A stretch of 64,000 nt of DNA from the IMG/VR virus record IMGVR_UViG_3300047650_000023; one strand, given 5' to 3'. Below, one piece after another: positions 2,295 through 61,379 of the stretch. The position numbers were made by a program, and so were the translations under genes. This stretch comes from a virus. The notes under the pieces are model-generated. The model was not told where the DNA came from, made no database searches, and saw only the letters and a list, made by a program, of their open reading frames with translations. Within the stretch, counting starts at the first letter, position 1; each line of letters starts with the position of its first letter.

Positions 2295-3353
2295 ATGTTA
2301 ATATTACCACAAGAGGTTGAAATTAAATGGGCAGGTGCAATAACAAAATATTATACGGATAAAGGATATAAACCAGTACCATATAGAAGTATTATTAAAA
2401 TAAATGTATTAGATTTATCAAAAGGTTCATTAGCTAAAGTGAATATACAATGTGATGAATGTGGAGAAATAGTTCCTGTAATTTGGAGAAATTATTTACA
2501 ACGAGAAACAGAAGAATATTATTGCCCAAAATGTTTTAGAAGTAAAATAAGACATAGAGATGAAAATGGTAAATTAATATTGGAAGAACCAATTTATCAT
2601 AATAAAGAATGGTTATATAATGAATACATAATTAAAGACCGTAGTGGTGAAGAAATTTCTGATGAATTAAAAATTGATTTGCGTACAATAAGATATTGGA
2701 CTGCAAAATACGGTTTTGCGAAAGAAGGATTATTAACAGGAATTATTAGTGAAGATGAATTATATGACTTATATATTAATCAGAGTTTATCTACCACTGA
2801 AATTGGAGAAATATATGGTCTGTGCGATAATTCTATTTCAAAATTATTAAGAGAATACGAAATAGATGTAGCAGATCAATCAGAAGCAATGAGAAAGTAT
2901 TATTATGAAAAAGGTGGATTAGAAAAATCAATTGAATATGCTAATAGATTAGAAAATCGTATTATTCGTTCATGTAGAGTTAGAGGTATTAATGTTGAAG
3001 ATTTTGACGGATTTTTATCAGATGAAACAACATTAATTAGAGGTACTCAAGATTATAAAAAGTGGCGACAGGCGGTATTTGAACGAGATAATTATACTTG
3101 TCAATGTTGTGGTCAACGAGGTTATAAATTACAAGCACATCATATAGAAAATTTTTCATCTGAAATAGATAAAAGATTTGATATTAAAAATGGTGTAACC
3201 ATGTGTGAACATTGTCACGGAATAAAATATAAAGATAGTTTTCACAACGTGTATGGAAAAAGAAATAATACAAAAGAACAATTAGACGAATATATAAAAA
3301 ATAAAAGACAACTAATTAAAGTTGATATTGAAAGTGAGGAATCAAATGGCTAG
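2295..3353 (+). CDS. free-standing HNH endonuclease with N-terminal Zn/HTH region
   Basis: YKKWRQAVFERDNYTCQCCG..LQAHHIENF..NGVTMCEHCH. Confidence 0.85.
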   Translation: MLILPQEVEIKWAGAITKYYTDKGYKPVPYRSIIKINVLDLSKGSLAKVNIQCDECGEIVPVIWRNYLQRETEEYYCPKCFRSKIRHRDENGKLILEEPIYHNKEWLYNEYIIKDRSGEEISDELKIDLRTIRYWTAKYGFAKEGLLTGIISEDELYDLYINQSLSTTEIGEIYGLCDNSISKLLREYEIDVADQSEAMRKYYYEKGGLEKSIEYANRLENRIIRSCRVRGINVEDFDGFLSDETTLIRGTQDYKKWRQAVFERDNYTCQCCGQRGYKLQAHHIENFSSEIDKRFDIKNGVTMCEHCHGIKYKDSFHNVYGKRNNTKEQLDEYIKNKRQLIKVDIESEESNG

Positions 3354-4380
3354 AAAAACACAACAAAACTCAATTACAAGTCCTGAATTAATATCAAAAG
3401 TTAATCCTGAAAACATAAGATTACTAGATGATTTTATTATATTTATGAGGTCTGTAAAACGAAGTGAGAAGACGATTGGTGGTTATCAAAACGATATACA
3501 TATATTCTTTGTTTGGAATTTAAAATTTAATAAGAATAAATTTTTTGTAGAAATTACAAAAAGAGATATAATAGCTTATCAAAATTGGATAACAAACACT
3601 AATGGAAATTCGCCTGCTCGTATTCGTAGACTTAAATCTGCATTAGCTTCAATGAGCAATTATATCGAAAATATACTCGATGAAGATCCAGATTTCAAAG
3701 GTTTTAAGAAGATAGTAAATAAGATTGAAAATCCTGCAAATCAAGCAGTTAGAGAAAAGACTGTATTTACAGATGAACAATTACAAATATTACTTGATTA
3801 TTATGTTGGTAAAAAACAATATATTAAAGCATGTGCTACTGCAATTTGTATGTGTTCTGGAGCAAGAAAATCAGAAATAGTACGTTATAAGGTAAGTTAT
3901 TTTACAGATGAAAATATTATTTATGGTTCTTTGTACAAAACACCTGAAAAGATGATTACAAAAGGTCGTAACGGTGGAAAATTAATCAATAGATATATTT
4001 TGGCTAATCAGTTTAAACCCTATCTTGATTTATGGTTAAAACAACGTGAAGAATTAGGTGTAGAAGGTGATTGGTTATTTTCAACGCAAGATGAAAACGG
4101 TAATTGGGTACAAATGAATGCAGATACTTTAAATAGTTGGGCAGAAACAGCAACAAGAGTATTGAGTGTTGATTTTTATTGGCACAGTTTAAGACATTAT
4201 TTTTGTACTCATCTTGCGAAATTAGGACTACCAGATAGCGTTATTATTGAGATTATCGGTTGGGAATCAGCAGATATGGTAAAAATTTACAATGATATTT
4301 CGGCAGATGAACAAATAGGTAAATATTTTGATGAAAATGGGATTAAAGAAATTAAGAAAGCTGAACTGTCGGATTTGTAA
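3346..4380 (+). CDS. tyrosine recombinase (XerC/D-like) in the tail module
   Basis: Catalytic set GARKSE (R), HSLRH (HxxR), IGW, KIY (Y). ATG at 3346 after GAGGA SD. Confidence 0.9.
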   Translation: MARKTQQNSITSPELISKVNPENIRLLDDFIIFMRSVKRSEKTIGGYQNDIHIFFVWNLKFNKNKFFVEITKRDIIAYQNWITNTNGNSPARIRRLKSALASMSNYIENILDEDPDFKGFKKIVNKIENPANQAVREKTVFTDEQLQILLDYYVGKKQYIKACATAICMCSGARKSEIVRYKVSYFTDENIIYGSLYKTPEKMITKGRNGGKLINRYILANQFKPYLDLWLKQREELGVEGDWLFSTQDENGNWVQMNADTLNSWAETATRVLSVDFYWHSLRHYFCTHLAKLGLPDSVIIEIIGWESADMVKIYNDISADEQIGKYFDENGIKEIKKAELSDL

Positions 4381-22228: not shown

Positions 22229-24295
22229 TTGAAATTAAAAATGCGTGGAGAAAAAATAAGTTTTAAATGTGAAAATTGTGGAACAGATTGTGAAAGATTA
22301 TTAAGCCATTACAAAAGAACCAAAGATCACTTTTGTTCTAAAAAATGTGCATATGAGTTTAAAGAAAAGAATTGTTATACATATAATACGTGTAAATATT
22401 GTGGAAAACAATTTAAATTAAAACCTAGTAGAAATAAACAACAATACTGTTCTATGGATTGTAAAAACAAATGGCAATCTGAAAATGTAAGAGGAGAAAA
22501 TCATCCTTCTTATAGTAAAATAAAATATAATTGCGACTGTTGTGGAAAAGAAATCTTAATAAGTCCTTTTGATATAAAACATGCAATTAAACATTTTTGC
22601 GATGATAAATGTAAAAGAGAATATTTTAGTAAAAAACCGTCAAATATCAAAATCTGTAAAATATGTGGTCAAGAAAAACCAATCGAAGAATTTGCATCTC
22701 AATCAAATAAATGTTATGTTTGTCAATATTTAAATAAACATAGTGATTTAATTATATTACCAAATTGGACTTTGGATGAATATAAAATTATATTAGATAA
22801 TTTATATAATAAAAGAGTAAATTGTGTCAATGAAATTTTACCTATATTAAATAATAAATCATTAGATAATTTAGTTGATGTACTATACATATTGAAAATA
22901 ACACTTCAAAATTATTCAATTAGAATAAAAAGAAATTGTTTAAATTGTGGAAAAGAATTTTATTGCAATGTAAGTGAATATAAAAATGGAGTTGGTTTAT
23001 TTTGTTCTAAAGACTGTTCCTATAATAATCTACATCTTAATAATTGTGGCGAAAAGAATTCAAGGTGGAATAGAGTAAAATGTAATTGTGATTGGTGTGG
23101 AAAAGAATTTACTACAAAAAACTATCAGTATCAGAATAACGAACATAATTTTTGTTCTATGGATTGTAAACAAGAGTATTTTAAAAATGTGACAATCAAA
23201 ACAGATGAATGGAAGAATCAATTAAGAAATGTTGCGTTAAATAATTTACAGAATGGTGCTTGGAATACTGATACAGATATTCAGAAAATAATTAATGATT
23301 CATTAAGAAAAAATAATATTAATTTTGATAATGAAATAACATTTGGATATTATTCAGTTGATAATTATTTAAAAGATTATAATTTAATAATTGAATTACA
23401 AGGTGATTATTTTCATTGCAATGTTAATAAATATTCAATTATTAATTATGAAATGCAAGTGGATAGGATATATAGAGATAAAGCAAAACATTCTTATATT
23501 TTAAATAATTGTAATATCAATGTCTTATATTTATGGGAATATGATATAAAGAATAATTTAGATATTTGTGAAGCATTAATTAGTAGATATATTGAAAATA
23601 AAGGCGTTTTGAAAAATTATAATTCTTTTAATTATAGTTTTATAAATAATAAATTAAAATTAAATAAAACTATAATTAAATCTTATCAAGAGTGTAAAAA
23701 TACAGAAATATCAGATCATATTGATTTATCAATTAAAGAAAAACCAGAATTCTATATTCATTATTTATGTGAAAATTGTGGAGAAGAATGTAGTCAATTG
23801 ATTTCTAAGTATCAAAAACAAAATCATCATTTTTGTTCCAGAAAATGTTCAGGCGATTATAAGAAAATGATTGGTAGCAAAATTGTAAAATGTGATTATT
23901 GTGGCAAAGAAGTTAATAAGAAAAATTCAGAATTAATTAATCATGAAAATAATTTTTGTGGTAAAGAATGTTATGATAATTGGCAAAGAGATAATGGAAT
24001 TTGGATAGATGTCGTTTGTAATAATTGTGATGAACATTTTAAAATAAAAAAATGTAGTTACGAAAAAAATATTACTAAGACTTTTTATTGTTCGCAAAAA
24101 TGTTATAGAGAAAAAATAAAGCAAAAAAATATTATATGTAATTGTGAATACTGTGGAAAGGAAATAATAAAACCTGAAGTAAATTATAATAAAAATAAGC
24201 ATCACTTTTGTAATTTAAGTTGCGCTACAGCTTATAACAATAAACATAGAAAAGTTAAGGAATTAAATATAGATATAAATTTAGAGAGTGCTTAG
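22229..24295 (+). CDS. multi-zinc-finger protein with central Vsr-like PD-(D/E)XK endonuclease domain (homing-endonuclease-like)
   Basis: Many CxxCG..HFCSxxC repeats flank EITFGYYSVDNY..IIELQGDYFH..RIYRDKAK..VLYLWEYDI. Confidence 0.8.
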   Translation: MKLKMRGEKISFKCENCGTDCERLLSHYKRTKDHFCSKKCAYEFKEKNCYTYNTCKYCGKQFKLKPSRNKQQYCSMDCKNKWQSENVRGENHPSYSKIKYNCDCCGKEILISPFDIKHAIKHFCDDKCKREYFSKKPSNIKICKICGQEKPIEEFASQSNKCYVCQYLNKHSDLIILPNWTLDEYKIILDNLYNKRVNCVNEILPILNNKSLDNLVDVLYILKITLQNYSIRIKRNCLNCGKEFYCNVSEYKNGVGLFCSKDCSYNNLHLNNCGEKNSRWNRVKCNCDWCGKEFTTKNYQYQNNEHNFCSMDCKQEYFKNVTIKTDEWKNQLRNVALNNLQNGAWNTDTDIQKIINDSLRKNNINFDNEITFGYYSVDNYLKDYNLIIELQGDYFHCNVNKYSIINYEMQVDRIYRDKAKHSYILNNCNINVLYLWEYDIKNNLDICEALISRYIENKGVLKNYNSFNYSFINNKLKLNKTIIKSYQECKNTEISDHIDLSIKEKPEFYIHYLCENCGEECSQLISKYQKQNHHFCSRKCSGDYKKMIGSKIVKCDYCGKEVNKKNSELINHENNFCGKECYDNWQRDNGIWIDVVCNNCDEHFKIKKCSYEKNITKTFYCSQKCYREKIKQKNIICNCEYCGKEIIKPEVNYNKNKHHFCNLSCATAYNNKHRKVKELNIDINLESA

Positions 24296-24786: not shown

Positions 24787-25622
24787 ATGGGACAAATGTC
24801 AATTTTAATACAAGCTCTTATTGATCCTGCGTCAAGTTCAAAGTTTCAATCACAAATCCAAGAAATGGCTAAAAATGTTAATGCCGAAGTAAATATTCAA
24901 GTTAATACTTCTACAACGGATGCTACTATAGATCAATTCATCACAAGAACACAAAACAAAATTCAAAATCTCCAATCCAGAAATAACAAAATATTTGATG
25001 ATCCTGCTGTGCAAGCAGAAGTAACAAAAGTACAGGGAATGTTGGATTCTTTAAAGATGAATCCAGAGACATTTACTACAGCTAGTAAAGTTATTAATAC
25101 TGAGATGGATTCAACGAGAACTGCATTTAATTCAGTTTCTAGTGCATCCGAAAATTTTGGAAGTAGTTTAGTAGCTGACAGTCTGAAGTTCGGAATCTGG
25201 ATGATGGCAGCTTCAGCCCTCATGATCCCTCTCAACAGTATAAAAACCGGAATTTCCTCGATTATTTCCATGAATGATTCACTTACAATGACTGCTGAAG
25301 CCATGAATACTTCAGTGTCGAATTTAGGACAATTGGCTTCAGGTTCTCAGCAAATTGCGGAGAATATGGGATCAAATTTAAACGATGTTCTCGCAATCGC
25401 ACATGTATATGCAAACGTAAATGAAACTCAAGCGTCAATACTTGCTCAAACTAAAGCAACGGTTGAATTATCTAATATCAGCGGACTTGATGGAAATTCA
25501 GCCACAAACGCCATGCAAGCAATCGAGCAAGCTTGGAACATGGGTGCAGATCAATTACAACATGTAGATGATGTTATGGCAACAATCGCTAGTAATCTAA
25601 AGGAAAATTATCAAACTGCCAT
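24787..25622 (+). CDS. tail tape measure protein, exon 1
   Basis: AAAGGAGG SD. TP901-type TMP core (LKFGIWM..SMNDSLT..TVELSNISGLD..NAMQAIEQAW). Frame is interrupted after YQTAI. Confidence 0.85.
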
Positions 25623-25921
25623 AGATTTTTGTGGCATAGCGGCATAATACATAAACCGTTATTTAAATTCTTTCTAATTAATGGCGAAAGTCTAAACTCG
25701 TAAAAGAGCAAGGCAACGCTCAACAAGCAAGAAAGTGATTCTTTTTAGAATATCATTTTGTGCAGTTGCAACGACTGAATGAAAGAACTGTTCTTAGGAA
25801 TAGAAGCAACAGTCTGAACATCTATGGAAATCATAGAGAAGAATGGTCGGTATGAAATAATTACCTAAAGAAGAACCATTCTCGCCTATTAAATAAATAG
25901 GTCATAAAAGTAACAGAATTG
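25623..25921 (+). ncRNA. group I intron 1 (299 nt, ORF-less)
   Basis: P1 UGCCAU|AGAUUUUU-GUGGCA with U.G at splice site. P10 UUUUGU/ACAAAA. P3 UUCUUUC/GAAAGAA. GCAACGACU + AGUC P7 (25773-76/25811-14). Ends in G. Confidence 0.85.
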
Positions 25922-25977
25922 ACAAAATATCTCAAGTGCTACATCTGTAGCAGGTACAATGGCGCAACAAGCAGGAT
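25922..25977 (+). CDS. tape measure protein, 56-nt micro-exon 2
   Basis: Encodes (I)QNISSATSVAGTMAQQAG(L) and restores the TMP frame when both introns are removed. Confidence 0.85.
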
Positions 25978-26329
25978 TAACAAAATAGTCCCCTTATGTA
26001 GTAATACATATTGAATAAGTTGGTGAACTTATAAATATAAGGTGTACAATTAACGTTTTAGTCACTATAGGAAATGATAGTTAATAATTGTGCTAACAGG
26101 GAAAATCTAAATTAGAAATCATCTAAAATGATAATCCTGTGCCAAGCTTGAAAGGAAACTTTCTTGAAGGTGCAACGACTAGGATATACGACCTAAAGAG
26201 AAATCTATGGTTATGAAATCTATACTGTAAGAATGAAATGTCTTATGGAAAGTGCCAACCATTTGTTCTATGACAAATGATGATTTAGTCTACTCCCTAA
26301 TAAATATCAGGAAACTGAGGGTATAAAGG
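25978..26329 (+). ncRNA. group I intron 2 (352 nt, ORF-less)
   Basis: P1 GGAU|/GUCC with U.G. P2 UAUGUA-GUAA-UACAUA. P3 GUUGG/CCAAC. P4 ACAGG/CCUGU. GCAACGACU + AGUC P7 (26177-80/26287-90). P8 CAUUUGU/ACAAAUG. P9 CAG-GAAA-CUG. Ends in G. Confidence 0.85.
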
Positions 26330-29300
26330 TATCATTTGAACAATTCGCTTCAATTATCGGTGTCGTTTCAGAAAAAACAAGACTTTCGGGCGATACTTTG
26401 GCTAATTCCCTAAAAATGATCATGGCTCGTGTCGATCAAATAAAATCAGCACAAGATGCTACCGGAAGCACTGCGACAGATTCCAGTAACGCTGCAAAGG
26501 CTTTACAGTCAATCGGCGTGAGTGTGCTTGATGCGAATGGTCAACTTCGCAATATGCAGGATATTTTAGGTGATGTTGCCACAAAATGGGACACATTATC
26601 ATCAACAGAAAAATCATATATTTCATATATGGCAGCCGGAACTCGCCAATATTCAACCTTTGAAAGTCTCATTATGTCGTTTTCCAAGAGTCAGGATTTA
26701 GCAACACAGGCAACATATTCTAATGGCGAAGCACTCAAGGCACAATCTGTTTATTTAGAATCTACATCTGCAAAAATCAAAGAATTTCAAACTTCCGTAG
26801 CAATCATGTGGGATAATGCTATTTCATCTAATACTTTAGGTGATGTAGTACAATTTGCCAATCTTCTCGTTGACCACATTGTACCCACACTCGGTACAAT
26901 CCTCGGTTTAGTAATTGCTTTGAATAGTGCATCAATGGTCAATGGATTAGTCAAAATGGCAACTAATATTTCAACTGCATTTCAAAATGTGGGTAAAACT
27001 ATTAGTGGAACATTTACTAATGCTAATATAGACTCATACACAAATGCATTACAAAAATTAAAAGATGCACAAACAGCCTCAACAGTGGCACAAGAAACAG
27101 CTAATATTGCTCAACAAGACGCTACAGCAAAAGCCTATGCTTTACAAATGGCACAGAATGCCTTATCAACAAGTGAAGAAGATACTAATTTTGTTTCAGA
27201 ACAACAAATTGCTGTAACAGTAGCACAAGCCGCCGCGGATAACGCAGCAACAGAAGCAACAAATGCTGAGACTGCGGCAATTGAAGCACAAAAGGTCGCA
27301 TCTGCGGCATTAACCACTGTATTTACAGGATTTCTAGGAGTTATAGGGTTAATAGTTACAGCTGTAAGCATTGGTGGAAGTATAATAAGCGGTGTTAATC
27401 AAGTAACACAAGCAGCGGCGCGAGCAGCAACGGACGCAGCAACATCATATCAACAAGAATCAGACTCTCTTTCATCTTTAATTAGCCAATATGACCAAAT
27501 TGGCTCTAAAGTAAATCAGTCAGCCAACGATAAACAAACGCTTACTGGTATTCAACAAAGTCTTATAAGTAGCTATGGTGACGAAGCTAAATCCATAAAT
27601 CTTTTAAATGATTCATATGACACGTCAATACAAAAATTACAAGCATTGTCTAAAGCAGAAGCAGATAATTATTTAATACAAAATAAAAAATCTGTTGATA
27701 CAAGCGAAGATGAAGCAAATAATCCCACAACAAATTATTTTAGTCCTAGTATGTCTAAATCATCATATGCAGGAGCAGATTATAAAGAAAATTTAGGTGG
27801 TATTTTTGATAACGTAAGTAATGTTGATGTTGTAACTCGTGGTGATAGTAATAATTTAGTTGATCAAGTGGCTATTACAGGCGCACTTAATGAACGTGTA
27901 GCTGCTATGAAACAAATTCTTGAAAACGGAGATGAACTAGAACAAAAAACAGGTACTCAAACTAAAGAAGAAAAAGATTTTCTTGAAAGTATAAGTACCG
28001 AATACACTAAACTTCTAGCAGTACAGAAAACGGCACAAGAAAATGCTTCTATTAAACTTGCTTCAACTAATTCTACTGACATAGCTAATCTCAATGAACT
28101 TGCAACTGCGTATCAAAATGCTGTGAAATCTGGTAATACTTCTGACATAGATAAAGCACAAAAAAGTTTTGATGATCTTGCTACAAGTGTAAATAACGCA
28201 TTAAAAAAATCACCTGAATTAAAGGCAGTATGGGATGCTTTAGTTAATAGTTTGGGAGTAGGTGAAACATCCACTAAAAAAGCCACAACCTCTGCATCAG
28301 ATTCAATTCCAGTATATGATGCAATGGGTAATGCCTTAAATGATGCAGCGCAAGCGGCAGATTCCGCAGCAGGTAGTAGCAATACTATGGCTGATCAAAT
28401 TAAAAACGCTACATCTGCCGTATCTGATTTAAATGGTGCTTTACAAACAGTTCAAAGTGGACAATCACTAGATGCAACTACAGTAATGGGTTTAATTCAA
28501 ACATATCCTCAATTAATATCTGCTGTTAAACAAACTAAAGATGGATATACAATTGAAGCATCAGCTTTACAAACATTAATAAATGCTAAAAAAACTGAAG
28601 CAGAAACAGGTATCCAATCTGAAATAAGTAATGCTACTGCTACTATTAATGCAATAAATACACGTATTAAAGGATATAATGACGAAGAAAAAGCTATTCA
28701 ATCATTATCAAATGCACAACAATTACTTGCATTAAATAATTTAAAAAAAATGAATGGTGAGCAAATACTTTCTAATTTTGGTTCAATGGCTGCTTATGAG
28801 CAAGAAATAAAAAATCTTCAAACAGTTATAAATGATAGTGCCTCTGCTACAGCTAGTAAAGCAAATTTAGCAAATTTAAATGCACAATTAGCGAATATGA
28901 AGAAGTTGTTAAATGATATTGGTACATCGTCTGATACAAAAAGTACAGCTTCTGGTTCATCCTCTTCAACAACAGCTAAAGACGCATTTTCAACCAACCT
29001 TCAAAATATAGAAGATTCTGCCACCAACGGAAATATAACTTCACAACAGGAACTTCAGCAATTACAAACGCTTAAGCAACAGACAACTACTTCCGCAGAA
29101 AAGCTTGAAATTGATAAGCAAATAAAAACAGTAGCAACAGCAATAGCAGAAGGTGCATATCAAGACCAAGAAACACAAATTTCACATCTTAATGCAATGG
29201 GACAACTTTCTGATCAACAGTTGTTAAGTGAATATCAAACAGCTTTAAAACTCGCTACAACTACAGCGGAGTATGAAAAAGAGCAAGAAAATGTACTTGC

Positions 29301-31092
29301 TACTCAGAATAAAATAAATGAAGATGCTGTTACAGCCATACAGACCAAAGAAGCATATCAGAAATCTATGGGAACTCTCACAGATGCCCAACAAATTGCT
29401 GATGACAAAGAAGTAGTTACTTTATATCAGCAAGACTTAGCAGTAGCGCAAAAAAATAAAGATTTAACTGATGCATTAAAATACACAGACGAACTTAATA
29501 CTGCTAATGAAACTCTTCATTCAGACCAAAATTCACAAAATAGTGATGCTATAACTGCTCAACAGAATCAAGAATCTTATTTAAAGAGTATGGGGCAACT
29601 CACTTCAGACCAAGAAATTATCACAGATAAACTTATAGATAACGAACTTCAAAAAGCATATGCTTTAGCAGTACAGAATAAAGATTTAACAACACAAGGA
29701 ATTTTGTTAGGTCAAATTCAGCAAGAAAATGAAGCAATATATACAGCACAAAATGCTACTGCTTCTAATATTTCCTCAATCGTTTCTGATACATCTGATT
29801 ATGGCACACTCACGGATAGTCAGATGCAAACACTTATTCAGGATGAAACAGCTGTAGCTAACAATGGTGCTAATGCTACAGAAAATTTAAATAATTATAC
29901 AACACAACTTCAACAAGCTAATGAGGCGGCAGAACAACAAAAGCTACTAACAGCGGTGCAAGTTGGTGCTTTACAAGATCAAGAAACAGCATTAGAAAAT
30001 GCTAATACAGCTCGACAAGCGGCTAATACACTTCTTCAAGACCAAAATAACTTGCTTTTAGCACAACAGCAATTAGCAGAAGATATCGCTAATAAAAACG
30101 TACAAGTTATAGAGAATGGCAAATGGGTAAATGTTTCTGATGCAACCACGGTAGCTTCGGATACAACTGCTGTTAATAATGCTCAAAATTCATTAAATAA
30201 TGATACTACTTCACAAGCATTTGATGATCAAAAAACAGCACTTGAAAATCAAATTGCTGTACTTAATGGCACAACTTCAGCAGAAGCAACAGCTATACAG
30301 AATGTAGTTAATTTCAATCAACAAGAGGCAAACACAACAGCAGTTGATGCTTATACTAAACTTATGCAAAGTCAAGGTGAGTATGTTTCAACTAATGCTG
30401 GAAATATTTCAGATGCCAATACAAATACACAAACGTTAGCAACTACACAATCTAGTACAGTAACCACACAAGCTGTTGGTGGTTTTACTACATTAGTAGA
30501 TACTCAAGGAACAGCATTTCAAAATTTAGCTACTCAAATAGAAACTGCCACAACTAAATTGCAAGCATTACAAGTACAAGAAGCAAAAGGGACATCTGGT
30601 ACAACTGCATCTACAGCAACCACATCTGCAACTACTACCAGTAAATCTTCTGTTACTACAGTACCTGCACATTCTCAAGGTGGTGTTACTTCATCAGGAG
30701 TAAATTTATTTGGTGAAGGAAATTCTCCAGAAGCTATAATTTCTTCTAATGGCACTTCAGCACAAATTGTTACTGCACCCACATTACTAAATGTACAAGG
30801 TGGAGAACAAGTCATACCATTGAATCAATCAAGTTCTAATTGGGTAAGTGCGAGTTCTCTAATAAGTAGTTTAGCTAGTGGTAGTGGAAGTGGTTCTAGT
30901 TTGTATAGTAATAACGTTACTCCTAATATAACACCTTACAGTATGAATCCAAATAATATTGTGAGCAATACTAGTAATTCCACAACAGGTGGAGATACGA
31001 TTTATCAATTTAGTGGTGACATCAATGTAACAAGTACAAATCCCAAGAATTGGGTTCAAGATTTTAACAGAAATATAAGTACAAAAATTTAA
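26330..31092 (+). CDS. tape measure protein, exon 3 (spliced product 1884 aa)
   Basis: (L)SFEQFASIIGVVSEKTRLSGDTLANSLKMIMARV. Long Ala/Gln/Thr helical region. C-terminal HSQGG..GEGNSPEAII motif. Confidence 0.9.
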
Positions 31093-36692: not shown

Positions 36693-38000
36693 TTGATACC
36701 TAAAAATGGATTATATTTATCATCTGCCGATTATGAATCGTGGCAAGATTATTTTAGTGGAATAGCAGATAAAGATTACATAAAACCAAGTTGTAATGGA
36801 TGCTGTTCTGACCCTGATTTGAAAGTCAAAAATATAACTTTTGTTGTTACTGAGAGGTGTAACCTTTGTTGCACCTACTGTTACGAGGTTCATAAATCTG
36901 GTGCGGTAATGAGTAAACAGGTTGCTAAAGATGCTGTTGATTTTCTTTTTAATAAAGAAAAAGTTAATGGTTATTATAGTGATGAAATTTCACCTGCTGT
37001 AATATTAGAGTTTATTGGTGGAGAACCATTACTTGAAATTGATTTGATTAATTATATAGTAGAATATTTTAAGTTTAAATCTTTTGAAGCAGGAAGTGCG
37101 TGGGCAACAAATTATGTAATTAGTATTACAACAAATGGTATTTTATACAAAAGAAAAAATGTTCAAGATTTTTTAAAACGTAATAAAGGACATATAAGTA
37201 TAGGTTTAACTATAGATGGGAATAAAGAGTTACATGATTCATGTCGAATTTTTCCTGATGGTAGTGGAAGTTATGATATAGTTGAATCAGCCGCAAAAGA
37301 GTGGATAAAATTTAATAATCATCCACAAACAAAAATAACTTTATCTCCGTATAATATTTCTTATGTTAATGATGCTTTAAAAAACGTATGGAATATCGGA
37401 ATAACAGGAGCATTTACTAATTGTGTTTATGAAGAAGGTTGGACAATAGAACATGCTAAAATATTTTATTCAGAATTAATTAAATTAGCAGATTATCTTT
37501 TAGAGAACGAAAATTATTCTAAATATTACACTTCTTTATTTGATGAATCTATAGGAAAACCACTTACAGAAGATAGAAACTGGTGTGGCGGCAATGGCAA
37601 AATGTTAGCTATAGGTACAGATGGTAGATGCTTTCCATGTATTAGATTTATGAAATATTCATTAAATACACCTAATCGTAAAGAAAAGTGTATAGGAAAT
37701 ATTTATAATGGTCTTGAAAGTAAAACTAAAAATGTATGGTTATGTGAGTTAAAAAAAGTAACAATGTCAAGTCAGTCAAATGATAAATGTAATAATTGTC
37801 AAATAGCTTCTGGATGTTCTTTATGTACTGGTTATAATTATGATAAATTTGGTACTCCGAATAAAAGAGCAACATTTATTTGTGATATGCATGTTGCCAG
37901 AGTAAAAGCTAATGTTTATTATTGGAATAGATTATATAAATTATTAGATATCAATAAAGTTTTTATAGATAATATTCCCATGAATTGTGAGGTGATATAA
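36693..38000 (+). CDS. radical SAM/SPASM peptide maturase (CXXX-repeat target type)
   Basis: CNLCCTYC (CxxxCxxC), EFIGGEPLLE, ITTNG, GLTIDG..HD. SPASM region WCGG..CFPC..IGNI..CNNCQIASGCSLC..FIC. Confidence 0.92.
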   Translation: MIPKNGLYLSSADYESWQDYFSGIADKDYIKPSCNGCCSDPDLKVKNITFVVTERCNLCCTYCYEVHKSGAVMSKQVAKDAVDFLFNKEKVNGYYSDEISPAVILEFIGGEPLLEIDLINYIVEYFKFKSFEAGSAWATNYVISITTNGILYKRKNVQDFLKRNKGHISIGLTIDGNKELHDSCRIFPDGSGSYDIVESAAKEWIKFNNHPQTKITLSPYNISYVNDALKNVWNIGITGAFTNCVYEEGWTIEHAKIFYSELIKLADYLLENENYSKYYTSLFDESIGKPLTEDRNWCGGNGKMLAIGTDGRCFPCIRFMKYSLNTPNRKEKCIGNIYNGLESKTKNVWLCELKKVTMSSQSNDKCNNCQIASGCSLCTGYNYDKFGTPNKRATFICDMHVARVKANVYYWNRLYKLLDINKVFIDNIPMNCEVI

Positions 38001-41935: not shown

Positions 41936-42871
41936 ATGTTAAATTTAAAAAGTAAATATCGTAAAATAGTTTCTTTGGTGTTAGCAATGGTTTTGGTGGG
42001 GAGTGTATTAATTATACCACAAAGTTTAACTGCTAGTGCAGCAACTAAAAATGGTTTGGACGTTTTTCATGGTACAACTCAATATAACCTAGTGGATTGG
42101 TCGCTGTTAGCTAAACAAGAACAATTTATTTACATAAAAAGTACGGAAGCAACGAATTTTAAAGATCCCACATATGTTTCAAATTACACAAATGCTAAGA
42201 AAGTCGGTTTAAGTTTTGGGGCGTATCATTTTTTAAGATTATATTCTGTTTCAAGTTGTATAGCGCAAGCTGATTTCTTTTGGTCACAAATTAAAGGCAC
42301 AGGTTTCTCGCTAGTTCCAGTTTTGGATTGTGAATCGTACGATTCTCAAACTACATCTGTAGGTGTAAGAGCATGTATAGCTTCATTTTTAAATGAGTTC
42401 TATAAAGATTCTGGTATACATTGTTTAATTTATGCTTGTCCAGATTATATAACAAACAATGACCTAAATTCTTATTTTTATTCGGATATGCTGTGGGAGG
42501 CTCAATACAATATTACACCTGATAAGATAAAAAATTGGAATTGGGTTTTGTGGCAATTTAGTTCTACTAGTCATTTATCATCTATTGGTGATGGTTTAGT
42601 AAATCTTGATTTTGATACAACATCATCTAATAGATTTTATTTAAAATATAATATTTATACTACTACAGTAAAACCTAAAAATAATGCTGTTACAAAATCA
42701 AAAGTACAAGTTTATGATGCAAACGGAAATATAGTAACTGGTTATACAATTCCAGCCAATACTTGGATTTATATTAAACGCTACACTTCAACATTCTGGG
42801 AAGTTATATATCCAAGTGGAACACATTGGACTAATGGATATATTTCAACAGCAACAAATCTCAAGAGATAG
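41936..42871 (+). CDS. GH25 muramidase endolysin with signal peptide and C-terminal SH3-like domain
   Basis: GLDVFH, YIKSTE, GAYHF, PVLDCE (DxE), WQFSS. Signal KIVSLVLAMVLVGSVLIIPQSLTASA. Confidence 0.9.
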   Translation: MLNLKSKYRKIVSLVLAMVLVGSVLIIPQSLTASAATKNGLDVFHGTTQYNLVDWSLLAKQEQFIYIKSTEATNFKDPTYVSNYTNAKKVGLSFGAYHFLRLYSVSSCIAQADFFWSQIKGTGFSLVPVLDCESYDSQTTSVGVRACIASFLNEFYKDSGIHCLIYACPDYITNNDLNSYFYSDMLWEAQYNITPDKIKNWNWVLWQFSSTSHLSSIGDGLVNLDFDTTSSNRFYLKYNIYTTTVKPKNNAVTKSKVQVYDANGNIVTGYTIPANTWIYIKRYTSTFWEVIYPSGTHWTNGYISTATNLKR

Positions 42872-44408: not shown

Positions 44409-44456
44409 GGTTACTATAATGTACCTGCCACTGGTGCCATATCGGCTAAAGTAACC
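44409..44456. mobile_element. putative attP of the serine integrase (48 bp, central TG at 44432-33)
   Basis: GGTTACT/AGTAACC terminal IR symmetric about CAC-TG-GTG. Core ACCTGCCACTGGTGCCAT encodes TCHWCH. Overlaps integrase stop. Gene strands converge here. Confidence 0.75.
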
Positions 44457-45960
44457 TTTTATAGACAATTTCTAATATGGTTTCGGTTTCGTTACATATC
44501 CAAATAATTTTATTAACTATAGATTTATATAATTGATTCCTTTTTTGGGGTGTATCTGCTAAAGATATATCATTAACAAACTTTTTTAAATTGTTAATAT
44601 CTTCTTCGTAATTATAATTTGACGTAGCTTTTAATTGAATATTTAGATCATTGATTTCTTTCCTAATCAACTTAATTTTTTTGTTCCATTTTTCTTTTCT
44701 TAATCTCCATTCTTCTTTATTATAATCTCCTATTTCATACATTTCATTAACTTTATCAAGAGCTTTTAAATATTTATCGAGTTCATTTGTCTTACTTAAT
44801 ATATTATCTTGAATAATTTTAATATCTTCTGTATTATCAAAATTATTTTGCAAAGAATAAATGCTTAAATATTGTTTAACTTTATTTATCACTAATTCTT
44901 CTAATGTTTTTTCCATAATTCCTTTGTTAATGCACTTATTTCCGTATGGATCTTTAAACCAACATGGTTTCATTAATACATTACCATTTGGTTTAGTAAG
45001 AAAACTATGGGTATGACCACATCTTCCACACTTTATTAAGCCACTAAAAGCAAATACTGATTGTTTTGTTCTTGATGGCATTTTATTATTATCTAATATT
45101 AATTTAAGAATTTTATCATGTTCAGATTGCGTTTTTACTGGATCATGGCAATTTTCAATAATAATCCATTGGTCTTTTGAATTTTTATGAAGTTGTTTAG
45201 CGTTAGGTTTTTTTGTTTTATGACCATCTCCAATAGATTTATTACTTATTATTTTTCCTAAATGAGTTTCGTCTACCAATAATCTGGAAACAGTCAAGTT
45301 ATTCCATTTCATATGTCTTGGAGATAAAATATTTTGATTATTAAGAATGTTAGATATTTGAGTTGTTGAATTTCCAGATATATATAATTCTATGATTTGT
45401 CTATAAACTTTAAGTTTTTCATCATTAATAACAAGTCCTTTTTCATTATATTTATCTTTGTATTTTTCATATTCATATGGATATGGTGGTGTTCCATTAG
45501 TCCAATTACCTCGTCTTGATCCAACCATTTTACCTTGTTTAAATCTTTTAGAAATCATTTTATATTCTTGTCGCGCAAATAACCCCTTAAAATCAGCATA
45601 TGTATCATCTAAATCATTATTTAGATCATATACTTTTTCAGGGGTTATTATTAAAGTATTAGATTTTTGAAATGCTTTTTTAATTCTATCTTGTTCTCCT
45701 AAGTCACCACGTCCCAAACGATCATAATCAACGCTACATACAGCATCATATACCCCTGCTTCAACATCTTTTAATAATTGTGTCATTTTTGGACGCATAT
45801 CAATACTATCTGAAGTTCCCACTTCTGCGTATTCTACATATTTAAAATTATTTTTAGTACATAAATCTGTTAAAATAGTTCTATGTTTCATTAAATCATC
45901 TTCATTATCTGCACGAGATTTTCTAATATATAAAGCTACAAATTTAACGTTATATTCCAT
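44446..45960 (-). CDS. large serine recombinase (phage integrase)
   Basis: YIRKSR (nucleophile Ser), DRLGR, GTPPYPY, zinc ribbon CGRCG..C..C, coiled coil. ATG 45960 follows AAGGA SD. Confidence 0.92.
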   Translation of the reverse strand: MEYNVKFVALYIRKSRADNEDDLMKHRTILTDLCTKNNFKYVEYAEVGTSDSIDMRPKMTQLLKDVEAGVYDAVCSVDYDRLGRGDLGEQDRIKKAFQKSNTLIITPEKVYDLNNDLDDTYADFKGLFARQEYKMISKRFKQGKMVGSRRGNWTNGTPPYPYEYEKYKDKYNEKGLVINDEKLKVYRQIIELYISGNSTTQISNILNNQNILSPRHMKWNNLTVSRLLVDETHLGKIISNKSIGDGHKTKKPNAKQLHKNSKDQWIIIENCHDPVKTQSEHDKILKLILDNNKMPSRTKQSVFAFSGLIKCGRCGHTHSFLTKPNGNVLMKPCWFKDPYGNKCINKGIMEKTLEELVINKVKQYLSIYSLQNNFDNTEDIKIIQDNILSKTNELDKYLKALDKVNEMYEIGDYNKEEWRLRKEKWNKKIKLIRKEINDLNIQLKATSNYNYEEDINNLKKFVNDISLADTPQKRNQLYKSIVNKIIWICNETETILEIVYKRLL

Positions 45961-45993
45961 ATTATTTAACATCCTTATTATTAGTATGGTTCT

Positions 45994-47985: not shown

Positions 47986-48461
47986 AGAATTACCTCACTT
48001 TGTTTTAAACTCTCATTTACATTAATTATACGTTGATTAGATGAACCTTTGAATTTCAGTGATGTATCTTTTAACTTTTCAATAAATTCACCATCAACAA
48101 GAACATCAATATATTTAAGCATTTCATGATTTTTTATATCTTCAAATTTAAATCCTGTATATGCCCAAATTGTTTTAGTTGGTGATTTACTTTTAATTTG
48201 TTTAAGAAATTCAATCAATTCATCTTCTGAATATAATGGATCACCGCCACTAAGAGTAATTCCATCAATTAAAGAATCTGTGTTTATATAATTAATAATA
48301 TAATCCTGCATTTCTTTGTTAAATGGTTTTCCATAATTAAAATTAGATAATCTTTGGTTATGACAATTAAAACAGTTATGTTTACAACCACTAATAAAAA
48401 GAACTGTTCTTATACCAATACCATCATTTAAACTTTCATGAATTATTCCACCAATATTCAA
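47973..48461 (-). CDS. nrdG: anaerobic RNR activase
   Basis: DGIGIRTVLFISGCKHNCFNCHN, GITLSGGDPL, DVLVDGEF, FKGSSNQR. Confidence 0.95.
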   Translation of the reverse strand: MNIGGIIHESLNDGIGIRTVLFISGCKHNCFNCHNQRLSNFNYGKPFNKEMQDYIINYINTDSLIDGITLSGGDPLYSEDELIEFLKQIKSKSPTKTIWAYTGFKFEDIKNHEMLKYIDVLVDGEFIEKLKDTSLKFKGSSNQRIINVNESLKQSEVILWNN

Positions 48462-50692
48462 TTATTATCACCACCAAAATCTACTGTGAAATTATGATCA
48501 ACTCTATCAACTACTTCTGCTTGTTTGCCTTCATTGAAGTTAGATACATCAGAACTAAGATATCCAGTAACTCTAGCTATGCGCCAAATTTTTTGACTAT
48601 GGCAAATAGGACAATTATTTTCTATTTCACCTTGATATCCACAATCCAAACAAATATCACTTGGAAAATTAATAGCACCATATGGAATACCCAATTCCAT
48701 CATTCTATCAATAATTTTTTCTACTCCATCTTGATTATTATTTAGTTTACTATCAAGTTCAAGATATGTAATACAACCCGCCGTTTCATATTGAGTAAAT
48801 GGTGCTTCAAGTTCAAGTTTTTGTTCCATAGAAACCTTTTCCCAAACTGGAACATGGCTTGAGTTTGTTAAATATTTTTTATCTGTTACAAATGGAATTG
48901 AACCATATTCTTTTTTTAGTTTCTCAACTGATGTTTTACAAAGATTTTCTGCTGGAGTAGCATATGTAGAAAAATTGAGATTATATTTTTCAGAAGATGC
49001 TTTTGCATAATCATAAACATGTTTTACAACAGATAAGGCAAAGTTATATACTTTTTTATCATGTACAAAATTTGTACCAAATAAAGCTTGACACATTTCA
49101 GCAATACCAATAAATCCAAATCCTAATGTTCCATGTTTCATTGCATTATAAACATTATCTTCACATTTATCATAATCAGCAATAGTACCATTATCATACA
49201 TAAATGGAGCAGATTTTAAAGATTGATTACAAATATAACTAAATCTATTCAATAAAGATTCTCTTGTTATATCAAGAATATTATCAAGTGCCTTCCAAAA
49301 TCCTTCTATATCTGGTGTTTTACGTTTACCTTGACAGATACCATACTCAATACCAATCTTAGGAAGTATAATTGTTGTAGGACAAATATTTCCTCTTCCT
49401 ACTTGTTTATATCCTAATCCATGTCTATCAAATCCAAGTTGAGTTCTACATCCCATAGTGGCTTTAATTGTATCAATATCATCAGGATTTTCTAGATGGG
49501 TAGGTGAATCACAATTAACCCAATTAGGATAAAATCTTTTTGTCATAGATTGAATTGCAAGTTTTTTTAGATAATAATTTGGTGTTCCTTCTTTATCATT
49601 TATACCTTTTTTATATTGAAATATGGCAATTGGGAAAATACTAGTTTTATGTACTTTACCAATACCATCAATAGATGCTTTCAATAGCCACTCTGTTACT
49701 AACTGTCCTTCTTTGCTTGTATCTCGTCCATAATTTATTGAAGTGAATGGAACTTGTGCGCCAGCTCTTGATTCAAGTGTATTAAGATTATGATAAAGTG
49801 CTTGCGCTCCTTGCATACCTTCTCTATAAGTCATATCATAAGCATATTGATAAACCGATTCATACGCTTTTGCATTTTCACTGTTTAATGAAATATCAAA
49901 TCCATTATTAATAGTTTCTTGAATCAATTCATCTGTATAATGAGATATATATTTCATACCATCTTTATAATGTTTAACGAATGATTTTTTTACGTATGGT
50001 GCGATATCATAATCTATATGGGCTGAAGCCACACCACCAAATTGAACTTGTGATTGAATTTGAAATATAACAGCTATAAGTTGAAAAGCTGTTGCTATAG
50101 AATTAGCACCTCTTACATCACCATTTCTTGTAGAAAATCCTTCTTTTAGAAGTTTGCCTACATCAGCAAAAAGACAGTTATGAGAACCAATTGCATATTT
50201 ATCAAAATCATGAATATATATATAACCATCTTCAAAAGCTTTTTTTACCGATTCTGTCAATAGATTATCTTTTGCATATTGTTTATGTAATTCTGAACCA
50301 ACTCTATTTTCCCTACCAGAAAAAGAATATTGGTCAATATTTGCATTATTGTTATCAATATTACTACAAGAAATTATATCATGTGTTTTCTGATAAAGTT
50401 CTTTGTTTAAGTTTCTTACCCTAGTGCGTTCTTGTCGATACGTAATATACTCTTTAGCAACATCCTTACGGCTACTTGCCATAAGTTTATCTTCTACAAT
50501 ATCTTGAATAGATTCTACTGAAATCTTTTTAATATTTGAATCTTCAATTGTATGTGCAATTTTATTTGAAATGCTTAATGCAATTTCACGATTTATTCCA
50601 TTGTCTGTTCGCTCCATTGCTTTAATAATTGCATCAGTTATTTTCGTTCTATTAAATTCTACTTTTCTACCATCACGCTTAGTGACTTCCAT
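48458..50692 (-). CDS. nrdD: class III ribonucleotide reductase with ATP cone, intron-free
   Basis: VTKRDGR ATP cone, YIHD, HNC, MGCRT, TPAE, CLDC/CPIC Zn site, RVTGYL glycyl-radical motif. Confidence 0.96.
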   Translation of the reverse strand: MEVTKRDGRKVEFNRTKITDAIIKAMERTDNGINREIALSISNKIAHTIEDSNIKKISVESIQDIVEDKLMASSRKDVAKEYITYRQERTRVRNLNKELYQKTHDIISCSNIDNNNANIDQYSFSGRENRVGSELHKQYAKDNLLTESVKKAFEDGYIYIHDFDKYAIGSHNCLFADVGKLLKEGFSTRNGDVRGANSIATAFQLIAVIFQIQSQVQFGGVASAHIDYDIAPYVKKSFVKHYKDGMKYISHYTDELIQETINNGFDISLNSENAKAYESVYQYAYDMTYREGMQGAQALYHNLNTLESRAGAQVPFTSINYGRDTSKEGQLVTEWLLKASIDGIGKVHKTSIFPIAIFQYKKGINDKEGTPNYYLKKLAIQSMTKRFYPNWVNCDSPTHLENPDDIDTIKATMGCRTQLGFDRHGLGYKQVGRGNICPTTIILPKIGIEYGICQGKRKTPDIEGFWKALDNILDITRESLLNRFSYICNQSLKSAPFMYDNGTIADYDKCEDNVYNAMKHGTLGFGFIGIAEMCQALFGTNFVHDKKVYNFALSVVKHVYDYAKASSEKYNLNFSTYATPAENLCKTSVEKLKKEYGSIPFVTDKKYLTNSSHVPVWEKVSMEQKLELEAPFTQYETAGCITYLELDSKLNNNQDGVEKIIDRMMELGIPYGAINFPSDICLDCGYQGEIENNCPICHSQKIWRIARVTGYLSSDVSNFNEGKQAEVVDRVDHNFTVDFGGDNN

Positions 50693-60055: not shown

Positions 60056-61069
60056 TTAACTTGCTAATTGGTCTTCGTTATGTAATTGCAAATATTCATC
60101 ATAATACATCCAAACCAATGGTGTCCCATCTGGGAGTTTTCCTACTGATTTCTGTTTTCCTTTACAACAATTTTGAATATTATTAATATTATATTTTTCT
60201 GACGCTTCTTTGGTAGTATTAAATATTTCATTAGTAGTAATACAAATTACTTTTTTTATATGATTATTTTTATATGTTTTTTTATCATTACCTACTTTCA
60301 AATACTCACTATAATACATCCATTGTAATAGCTCACTTGTAATCGGGTGCTTACCACAAGATTTTCTTCGACCATTACAACATGCACAAATACTACTATA
60401 ATCTATATTATATTTCAGACTAGCTTCTTTTTCTGTATTAAATATTTCTTTTGTATTAATACAAACAATTGACTTTTTATTAAAACTATCTTTCCCTGTA
60501 AATAATCCATAAATATCTTTATTCCAAGGAATACAACCTTTTTTATTTTCACTCATTTTTTCTTTAGATTCATCACTCATGTGTTTTCCGAACCAATAAG
60601 AATTTTTACTTTTTAATATTGCATGATTATTTTTAATCTTTTCGATTGATTCCTTTGTATGGTGTCTTCCATACCACGATGAATTAATTCCACTATATTT
60701 ACCTTTCCTTGTTTCACTTATTCTATTATAAATATTTTTAATTTCATCATCTGTTTTACCTAATATTAAATTTCCACCATCTCCACCAGAAGCAATATTA
60801 TAATAGTCATTTGACTCAGTAGCATTGTGATTTTTTATGTATTCTATTTCTAATTGATTTAATTCTTCTTTAGAATAAGCTATTGAGAGTATTTCACGAA
60901 TAAAGTTTTCTTTACCATATTTGATTATCGCACGTTTTAAGTGTTTTCCACTTCCCAAATATGTAATCCACGTATTAGATATATCAAATTTCTTTTGACC
61001 AATATACTTTTTACCATTGATTAAATTAGTTGTGATATAAATAAATCCATAAGGATCTTTTACTTCCAA
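60056..61069 (-). CDS. free-standing GIY-YIG homing endonuclease with NUMOD3/NUMOD1-like repeats
   Basis: YGFIYITTNLINGKKYIGQ, YLGSG, GRHHTKES, FGKHMSDESKEKMSE, VICITTNEIFNT. TTG start 8 nt after GGAGG. Confidence 0.9.
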   Translation of the reverse strand: MEVKDPYGFIYITTNLINGKKYIGQKKFDISNTWITYLGSGKHLKRAIIKYGKENFIREILSIAYSKEELNQLEIEYIKNHNATESNDYYNIASGGDGGNLILGKTDDEIKNIYNRISETRKGKYSGINSSWYGRHHTKESIEKIKNNHAILKSKNSYWFGKHMSDESKEKMSENKKGCIPWNKDIYGLFTGKDSFNKKSIVCINTKEIFNTEKEASLKYNIDYSSICACCNGRRKSCGKHPITSELLQWMYYSEYLKVGNDKKTYKNNHIKKVICITTNEIFNTTKEASEKYNINNIQNCCKGKQKSVGKLPDGTPLVWMYYDEYLQLHNEDQLAS

Positions 61070-61076
61070 TATTTTA

Positions 61077-61097
61077 TCCTCCCTGATCAGAGGAGGT
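61077..61097 (-). promoter_or_regulatory. hairpin occluding the SD of the GIY-YIG gene
   Basis: Minus strand CCTCCTCT-GATC-AGGGGAGG. Confidence 0.6.
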
Positions 61098-61379
61098 GTG
61101 TACACACATTTTAACTTGCAAGTTCTCCTTAATACTATCCTTTCTTAAAATTTAATATTAATTTATTATAGTACCCAATCGTCTTCAATATGTTCGCAAA
61201 TTCTATAATGATTTCTATCGTCTTTAATAAATTCTGCCATAACATTATCAATCTTAACAAGTTGATAATTACTCTTTATAAACTTCCTTACATGCTTTCT
61301 ACGTGAATTATAACTAAGGCTCATTACTTATTTCTCCTTTAGTTTTAAAATGTGAATCAACTACCAATTTGGTAGTATA

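Follow-up and report, generated by a model that had tools for sequence, protein, structure and literature searches.

Does a phage tape-measure gene that appears as two separate reading frames encode two proteins, or one that is restored at the RNA level, and does the interruption serve the phage? In the window (the whole 64-kb stretch of viral DNA analysed), the ORF list gives 24787..25647 (286 aa) and 26398..31092 (1564 aa), a long ORF being absent in between. The explanation we favour, and regard as very probable, is that a large low-GC Firmicutes-type phage separately acquired two endonuclease-less group I introns, which lie 56 nt apart in the conserved PhageMin_Tail domain and would be spliced independently. 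The features concerned are listed in Table 1.

Table 1. Exons, predicted introns and P1 helices of the interrupted tape-measure gene
Feature	Coordinates	Strand	Description	Basis
Tape-measure exon 1	24787..25622	+	278 codons + 2 nt, last base U25622	ORF list, PF10145
P1 of intron 1 (predicted)	25617..25636	+	25617-25622/25631-25636; U25622·G25631 at 5' splice site	
Intron 1 (predicted)	25623..25921	+	299 nt, ORF-less group I	RF00028 local match, family covariation
Micro-exon	25922..25977	+	56 nt; Ile codon base 3, QNISSATSVAGTMAQQAG, Leu codon base 1	
P1 of intron 2 (predicted)	25974..25991	+	25974-25979/25986-25991; U25977·G25988 at 5' splice site	
Intron 2 (predicted)	25978..26329	+	352 nt, ORF-less group I	RF00028 local match, blastn, A2 covariation
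Tape-measure exon 3	26330..31092	+	2 nt + 1586 codons + stop	PF10145, tblastn

Exons and the predicted spliced product

Together the exons amount to 5655 nt, which is divisible by 3, and give a conceptual product of 1884 aa in a single frame with a single terminal stop. This product aligns without gaps over both junctions with uninterrupted homologues (P0004-P0007; 52–57% identity). The initial annotation had proposed the same product and the same boundaries for both introns and for the micro-exon (Table 1), and all of these hold by frame and by homologue alignment. Removal of both introns leaves the junction peptide ...YQTAI-QNISSATSVAGTMAQQAG-LSFEQFASIIG..., and the peptide predicted over both junctions of the spliced protein reads ...ENYQTAIQNISS...QQAGLSFEQ.... 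When only intron 1 or only intron 2 is removed in silico, stops are encountered. It had also been claimed that unspliced RNA gives 286 aa and that skipping of the micro-exon leads to an early TGA; the former corresponds to the first listed ORF, and in silico skipping indeed gives ...TAIII followed by TGA.

The PhageMin_Tail profile (PF10145) is divided among the exons. Its positions 32-91 match residues 215-273 of exon 1, which alone scores 22.4 bits, and positions 113-194 match the first 96 residues of exon 3 (46.1 bits, the cut-off being 33.2). The match in exon 1 ends at position 91 and that in exon 3 begins at 113; the micro-exon supplies precisely what the profile lacks between them, and a 70-aa junction peptide gives an unbroken match over positions 84-142. 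A phmmer search with exon 1 returned 514 homologues, and annotated tape-measure proteins were matched by exon 3 (tblastn); exon 1 gave no tblastn match among cultured phages, nor did it find related loci when used as query against viral contigs. A tail protein gene (phrog_1887) lies downstream. By its PF10145 match, the gene is identified as a phage tape-measure gene within a tail-gene block.

In two intron-less homologues (L261 and L263), the stretch corresponding to the micro-exon is uninterrupted. L261 has CAAACTGCCATACAAAATAT, identical to the 20-nt ligated exon 1/exon 2 junction sequence, and L263 is almost identical to the spliced sequence at the insertion site of intron 2 (site 2). Ligation of the predicted exons would restore an intact, conserved host gene. 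The search for close relatives of the phage covering the junction found none, which counts against the favoured explanation.

Two putative group I introns of separate families

A P1 with its U·G pair, P3, P4-P6, P7, P8, P9 and a terminal G were placed by coordinate in both introns, in agreement with the initial annotation, which had named P1, P3, the P7 core and the last base. In intron 1, P7 is formed by 25773-25777/25810-25814 and P3 by seven Watson-Crick pairs (25668-25674/25781-25787), the last base is G25921, and P1 occupies the same position in the Rfam alignment; P4-P6 were placed from the single sequence only. P7.1/P7.2 are absent, and the extended 3' domain consists of P9, P9.1, P9.1a and P9.2. 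In intron 2, P7 is formed by 26177-26181/26286-26290 and the last base is G26329. Its P3, placed from the single sequence only, is weak, with four pairs of which two are G·U. The stretch from P7 to P3' holds hairpins at 26191-26211 and 26225-26248 that correspond to P7.1/P7.2, and the P9 tail is typical of Herelleviridae and SPbeta introns. We read intron 2 as having an IA2-like build, the formal subgroup being our own assignment.

The initial annotation had suggested a covariance-model check, and its outcome was mixed. When the search was confined to 1.2 kb, the Rfam group I model (RF00028) matched both introns: intron 1 with 24.3 bits (E = 9.5e-4) over 25613-25838 and intron 2 with 39.5 bits (E = 2.7e-8) over 26042-26312. 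However, both scores fall short of the gathering threshold of 50 bits, and whole-window Rfam scans missed both introns in gathering mode as well as in E-value mode. These results count against the favoured explanation, as do the short P1 stems (6 bp including intron-side pairs) and the weak P3 of intron 2.

For the family of intron 1 (alignment A3: P7, P8, P9.1 and P9.2), 95.3% of cells are paired and both sides have changed in 18 of 30 pairs, a level reached in 0 of 500 shuffles; slid controls did not exceed 0.106. Compensatory changes among homologues of its 3' domain fall in each of these four helices, and eight aligned members have a G 3–5 nt past a conserved ...ACAGA. For the family of intron 2 (alignment A2: the 5' half up to P4), covariation was 0.466 versus 0.215 in shuffles (0 of 500), and the helices are 97–100% paired, with compensatory changes. 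The guide sequence of intron 2 also co-varies with the third base of a Gly codon among site-2 introns of other tape-measure genes. The predicted core helices, including the putative guanosine-binding helix P7, are backed by this covariation, and the data support the view that two genuine group I introns flank the 56-nt exon.

Similarity between the two introns is limited to the GCAACGACT core, an exact word found at just two places in the window, 25768 and 26172. The introns fall into two separate families and are of different origin, which fits the independent invasions that had been suggested. The relatives of intron 1 are abundant in metagenomic phages and share a conserved P9.1-P9.2 tail. 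They are often found in tape-measure genes, sometimes in several copies per gene. The family, of which a conserved 20-nt 3' tail is the mark, occurs in more than 119 contigs of IMG/VR and in more than 120 from metagenomes, both figures being lower bounds. No viral contig contained the exact pattern GCAACGACTGAATGAAAGAA. Six loci with the 18-mer AGCAACAGTCTGAACATC were set aside as probable chance matches, having neither further similarity nor an RF00028 match. RF00028 is a weak detector for the family of intron 1, since it recognised only 3 of 20 of its loci.

Intron 2 matched 268 phage records by blastn, and its 3' tail shares 85–90% identity with introns from phages of Listeria, Staphylococcus and Enterococcus. 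Relatives lie between the halves of a split DNA polymerase I gene in Staphylococcus phages KSAP7 and Golestan101-M (Twortvirinae), and between the parts of three other split genes, yonO (phi3T), nrdD (Clostridium CS04) and DnaE (Bacillus phage G); in phage Romulus, a relative lies within a stretch whose sole annotation is ‘similar to DNA polymerase’. The two introns in the window were described as endonuclease-free, and no endonuclease ORF was found in either, all + strand ORFs being of 31 aa or less.

Insertion sites, splicing and alternative readings

Homologous tape-measure genes are interrupted repeatedly. Homologous ORFs have C-terminal ends that fall into clusters, at residues ~275-286, ~297-301, ~323-333, ~400-405 and ~517-526. 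L004 and L102 each have a single interruption at or near the insertion site of intron 1 (site 1), and L006 has one at site 2; the ORFs of L003 and L007 end at site 2, and their contigs stop before any identified downstream exon. The intervening sequence of L004, 8 nt from site 1 of the window, was not recognised by RF00028. Related introns at the same or other sites contain ORFs (353 aa in L006, 319 aa in L001, an HNH ORF in TR-TP1). A 688-aa zinc-finger nuclease is encoded just upstream of the tape-measure gene (22229-24295) and has no blastp similarity to the L006 and L001 intron endonucleases.

We propose that each intron, on the late transcript, would fold into its own ribozyme from P1 to P9. 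Free guanosine would then cut behind the U of the U·G pair (U25622 and U25977), and the exons would be joined after the terminal G (G25921 and G26329). Only the doubly spliced mRNA would encode the 1884-aa protein. The initial annotation spoke of ‘ordered’ splicing events, which is not borne out: P10 of intron 1 would use only the first 5–6 nt of the micro-exon and P1 of intron 2 no more than the final 4 nt. Nothing in the sequence imposes an order, and the two reactions could probably proceed independently, in either order. The anatomy, the junctions, the family membership and the structural covariation are shown by our analysis; self-splicing in vivo, its independence of order and the mode of spread are inferred.

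A first alternative, which we consider very unlikely, is that the inserts descend from group I introns, one or both of which now splice poorly, the gene being a decaying copy (in a prophage that is defective or an assembled genome that is not viable) that yields no full-length protein. The sub-threshold Rfam scores, the weak P3 of intron 2 and the lack of ORFs, which marks the phase before an intron is lost in the course of its life cycle, would agree with decay. Against this, the helices are intact and every family-invariant position is kept (43 columns of A3 in intron 1, 45 of A2 in intron 2). Moreover, exon 3 is open across 1586 codons, which argues for expression of the gene through splicing, and the adjoining tail genes are intact.

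Very unlikely, in our view, is also the proposal that ordered or GTP/Mg-sensitive splicing gates tail assembly, or that partial splicing or skipping deliberately yields an N-terminal product of ~281-302 aa beside the full-length protein. The ‘GTP/Mg-sensitive checkpoint’ of the initial annotation was speculation for which the sequence holds no evidence. It is true that the full-length protein requires both splicing events and that, in the accounts of PMC10136302 and PMC11878797, documented instances of exon skipping by tandem introns include Twort orf142, the 23S rRNA of Coxiella and a polymerase gene of Bastillevirinae. However, no sequence link between the two ribozymes was seen, and their guides use opposite ends of the micro-exon. 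The introns are also dissimilar, and distinct splice-site recognition elements disfavoured skipping in engineered introns (PMC10136302). Finally, the number of introns in homologous genes ranges from zero to two and their sites vary, which matches the prediction for selfish insertion and not that for a conserved regulatory design. We are equally doubtful that the introns are non-neutral in a broader sense, with splicing efficiency tuning tail assembly, whether incomplete or skipped splicing sets the amount of the ~281-302-aa fragment or delays the full-length protein until late infection. The reading in which the inserts are not introns, the gene being split into separate polypeptides or interrupted by an assembly artefact or other insertion, agrees with the two ORFs given by gene callers but is already strongly disfavoured, and close to negligible, given that a 56-nt piece without a start codon fills the exact Pfam domain gap, that the junction recreates the sequence of intron-less L261 and that both inserts have covarying ribozyme structure.

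Group I introns such as these are usually seen as selfish elements residing in conserved gene segments. Under our preferred explanation of two separately acquired introns, the most likely course is that members of different families arrived separately, conserved tape-measure stretches acting as recurrent landing sites. The introns would be selfish passengers rather than a regulatory device and may persist, as we propose, because they splice well.

Known systems and significance

In prophages of the Bacillus cereus group, tape-measure genes have been found to hold group I introns, named TMP-IVS1, IVS2 and IVS3 (Tourasse and Kolsto 2008, PMC2504315). As in the window, they lie in conserved parts of the gene and several lack a complete endonuclease gene; they are of class IA, with up to two per gene. 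One site there can hold different introns, and similar introns occur at different sites. In contrast to those prophages, whose host lineage and gene are only distantly related to ours and for which no micro-exon-separated pair is described, the introns studied here flank a micro-exon. A parallel in this respect is Twort orf142, a tail-structure gene with several self-splicing group I introns, including a pair that flanks a 23-nt exon (Landthaler and Shub 1999, as related in PMC10136302 and PMC11878797). Both are phage tail genes with group I introns around a very short exon (56 nt here), and intron 2 belongs, by sequence, to the same broad Firmicutes-phage intron group as the Twortvirinae DNA polymerase I introns. 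However, introns 2 and 3 of orf142 are, in those accounts, highly similar and exon skipping has been shown, whereas the pair described here shows no relationship beyond the P7 core, and loss of the micro-exon by skipping would disrupt the reading frame. Twin group I introns of different subgroups with a 34-nt exon between them are also reported, in the account of PMC10136302, from 23S rRNA of Coxiella burnetii, a bacterial rRNA gene as opposed to the phage protein-coding gene considered here.

Introns of Thomasclavelia phage TR-TP1 and faecal phage MT835481.1 have the same 3' module as intron 1 (P9.2 and the ...AAAAGUAACAGA... tail), and the match to MT835481.1 continues through P9 and P9.1. 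Their host gene is likewise a tape-measure gene, and both are gut-associated low-GC phages. Unlike intron 1, their introns carry endonuclease ORFs, and they occupy other positions; that of MT835481.1 is near residue 399 in the numbering of the window protein, with a middle exon of ~0.5 kb versus 56 nt here. In neither record are the introns annotated as such.

Published cases already exist of tape-measure genes with group I introns and of tiny exons flanked by tandem introns, and the arrangement is less unusual than the initial annotation implied. It is one more naturally occurring example in which two dissimilar group I ribozymes share a tiny exon, and could be used to study how exons come to be included or skipped; no new question is raised by it. 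The mis-annotation of a split gene, here as ORFs of 286 and 1564 aa, also occurs in public records (TR-TP1, phi3T yonO and MT835481.1). As the Rfam group I model mostly misses the family of intron 1, a dedicated covariance model would improve phage annotation and could map intron hot spots in tail genes.

The split tape-measure gene and its junctions

Ligation in silico of positions 24787–25622, 25922–25977 and 26330–31092 gives 5655 nt encoding 1884 amino acids, with a single, terminal stop and the junction peptide ...YQTAI-QNISSATSVAGTMAQQAG-LSFEQFASIIG.... According to translation, retention of both intron 1 (25623–25921, 299 nt) and intron 2 (25978–26329, 352 nt) yields a 286 amino acid product, excision of either one alone brings stops in frame, and skipping of the micro-exon between them gives ...TAIII followed by TGA. 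No substantial ORF lies between the 286 and 1564 amino acid ORFs in the ORF list. The observation made in the initial annotation, a gene split by two introns, is confirmed: all its coordinates and sizes were correct when rechecked against the ORF list and the in silico splicing, and neither intron encodes an endonuclease, since none of their plus-strand ORFs exceeds 31 amino acids.

The exact junctions originally proposed were borne out by uninterrupted homologues, whose match across them fixes both. A phmmer search with exon 1 against 1.8 billion representatives returned 514 homologues; four uninterrupted ones (P0004–P0007) align with the spliced product without gaps over both junctions (52–57% identity). 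In Pfam profile PF10145 (PhageMin_Tail), exon 1 reaches position 91 and exon 3 begins at 113, and a 70-residue peptide spanning both junctions is one continuous match to positions 84–142. At the DNA level, an intron-less homologue (L261) contains CAAACTGCCATACAAAATAT, which matches base for base the sequence made by joining exons 1 and 2, and a second one (L263) is nearly identical near junction 2. In group I introns U precedes the 5' splice site and G the 3' splice site; the junctions of both introns conform.

Ribozyme features and phage context

The inserts are very probably both group I introns. Each intron has a single copy of GCAACGACT, and the rest of the window has none. The helices found are listed in the table; two hairpins of intron 2 occupy the P7.1/P7.2 position, as is typical of IA2-type phage introns. 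The expectation that covariance models would recover the introns held in part: the Rfam group I model RF00028 matched both in a 1.2-kb scan (intron 2, 26042–26312, 39.5 bits, E = 2.7e-8; intron 1, 25613–25838, 24.3 bits, E = 9.5e-4), but neither was matched at the gathering threshold or in an E-value scan of the full 64-kb window.

Features of the tape-measure region, its introns and other window genes
Feature	Coordinates	Strand	Remark
ORF	24787–25647	+	286 aa
ORF	26398–31092	+	1564 aa
Intron 1 P1	25617–22/25631–36	+	U25622·G25631
Intron 1 P3	25668–74/25781–87	+	seven Watson-Crick pairs
Intron 1 P4, P5, P5a, long P6		+	present
Intron 1 P7	25773–77/25810–14	+	
Intron 1 P8	25788–93/25798–803	+	
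Intron 1 P9, P9.1, P9.1a, P9.2	3' of P8	+	3' domain; last base G25921
Intron 2 P1	25974–79/25986–91	+	U25977·G25988
Intron 2 P2-type hairpins		+	present
Intron 2 P3		+	short, GUGC/GUGC
Intron 2 P4	26096–101/26135–40	+	
Intron 2 P7	26177–81/26286–90	+	
Intron 2, two hairpins	between P7 and P3'	+	P7.1/P7.2 position
Intron 2 P8	26260–66/26273–79	+	then P9; last base G26329
Zinc-finger protein	22229–24295	+	688 aa; zf-FCS; HNH-endonuclease match (phrog_1271)
HNH endonuclease	2295–3353	+	free-standing (phrog_8446)
Integrase-like ORF	3322–4380	+	follows HNH gene
GIY-YIG/NUMOD3 endonuclease	60056–61105	−	segE-like
Radical SAM enzyme	36693–38000		within tail block
NrdD	48458–50692		anaerobic ribonucleotide reductase
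Serine recombinase	44446–45972		large
Lysin	41936–42871		GH25

Taken together, the radical SAM enzyme, NrdD, serine recombinase and GH25 lysin indicate that the phage is large and temperate, with an anaerobic low-GC Firmicute as its host (window GC, 28%). The HNH endonuclease, the integrase-like ORF and the GIY-YIG/NUMOD3 endonuclease are further genes of mobile-element type; homing-type nucleases are numerous in this phage.

Relatives of the two introns

The first search of cultured-phage records with intron 1 gave a single match, faecal phage MT835481.1, whose second tape-measure intron has the entire 3' domain in common with it; P9 and P9.1 differ by compensatory changes. The 20-mer TAGGTCAYAAAAGTAACAGA, 3' of P9.2 in the 3' tail (25862–25921), was found in >119 IMG/VR and >120 metagenome contigs (L021–L259), and this tail is the mark of a very large intron family. 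Soil, freshwater and gut are among the sources of these contigs. At least 12 loci retrieved by this motif alone fall in tape-measure genes, among them that of cultured Thomasclavelia phage TR-TP1 and that of L102/L223, in which an ORF-less intron lies 2 nt off site 1 of the window. In the family alignment (nine sequences; P7, P8, P9.1, P9.1a and P9.2), 95.3% of cells are paired, both sides change in 18 of 30 pairs, and covariation is 0.394 versus 0.156 when shuffled (0/500; slid controls ≤0.106). A G stands 3–5 nt 3' of ...ACAGA in each of the eight members of the alignment for which the tail was read, which speaks for G25921 being the 3' splice site. RF00028 detects just 3 of 20 sampled family loci, which explains the low score of intron 1; a dedicated model for the family seems to be missing.

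Blastn with intron 2 matched 268 phage records, the genomic position being known for those inspected. The match separates DNA polymerase I halves in Staphylococcus Twortvirinae KSAP7 and Golestan101-M, yonO halves in phi3T and, together with an HNH gene, nrdD halves in Clostridium phage CS04; in Bacillus phage G it lies in a DnaE-like gene adjoining a homing endonuclease, in Romulus within a stretch annotated solely as 'similar to DNA polymerase', and in an Enterocloster phage and SPbetaL4 between two neighbouring hypothetical CDSs. Across eight family sequences aligned over the 5' half of the intron, three helices are 97–100% paired with many compensatory changes (covariation 0.466 versus 0.215 shuffled, 0/500; slid controls ≤0.118). 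The tape-measure gene of L006 is likewise interrupted at site 2, and its downstream exon was located; the ORFs of L003 and L007 stop at this site, on contigs that end before a downstream exon could be made out. Site-2 intervening sequences in other tape-measure genes start TAA(C/T)AA..., as in the window, and their guide varies in step with the Gly codon at its third base (GGAU/GUCC in the window, GGGU/GCCC in L003, CAGGCU/AGCCUG in L007).

Splicing, spread and precedents

The two introns differ in sequence, as first noted, and belong to different families; they would best be read as two independent self-splicing ribozymes. Ordered splicing had also been proposed, as had a GTP/Mg-sensitive checkpoint gating tail assembly. 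Intron 1 P10 pairs with the first few micro-exon bases and intron 2 P1 with the last four, and since these guides use opposite ends nothing points to an obligatory order. The checkpoint is likewise unsupported by the sequence, and homologues differ in intron number (none, one or two) and in intron position, which argues instead for selfish insertion. That the introns are decayed and no longer splice is unlikely, because positions invariant in the family are kept and the downstream 1586-codon frame is intact.

Insertion appears recurrent. C-termini of homologous ORFs (P0002–P0151) cluster at ~275–286, ~297–301, ~323–333, ~400–405 and ~517–526 of this protein; the five clusters look like recurrent interruption sites inside and just past the PhageMin_Tail domain, the pattern expected if conserved domain stretches are repeatedly hit. 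Several contigs (L080, L027/L091/L229, L049, L105, L171, L167 and L146) hold two or three intron 1 tail copies 510–1020 nt apart, with an open frame of just 10–240 nt past the first; in L146 a ~130-nt tape-measure exon separates an intron end (214) from an RF00028 match starting at 345. These arrangements suggest further multi-intron genes, in which short internal exons are not rare. Public records break up intron-containing genes into several CDSs: TR-TP1 (L260, PQ571309.1 26508–33544) has a 'tape measure', an 'HNH endonuclease' and a 'hypothetical protein', and phi3T (L002) has two hypothetical proteins for yonO. MT835481.1 (L001) is a further such record, and its tape-measure gene has two introns, one scoring 75 bits with RF00028.

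As the introns lack nuclease genes of their own, their spread would depend on recombination between phages infecting the same cell or on a nuclease supplied in trans. The 688 amino acid zinc-finger protein, whose gene ends ~490 nt upstream of the tape-measure gene, is possibly a free-standing homing nuclease and is a candidate for this trans-acting role; blastp detected no resemblance between it and the endonucleases in related tape-measure introns (L006, L001).

As in the window, group I introns occupy the tape-measure gene of Bacillus cereus group prophages, at three sites and with up to two per gene, as reported in 2008 (PMC2504315). Short exons among such introns are likewise described (PMC10136302) for Twort orf142 (three introns, one 23-nt exon) and Coxiella 23S rRNA, whose 34-nt exon (56 nt here) is flanked by introns of different subgroups, where the window has different families. 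Introns that are spliced have also been shown in tail and capsid genes of Cluster J mycobacteriophages (PMC3706429), and exon skipping has been reported in one Bastillevirinae polymerase gene (PMC11878797). The present tandem introns are a clean further example of this known phenomenon.
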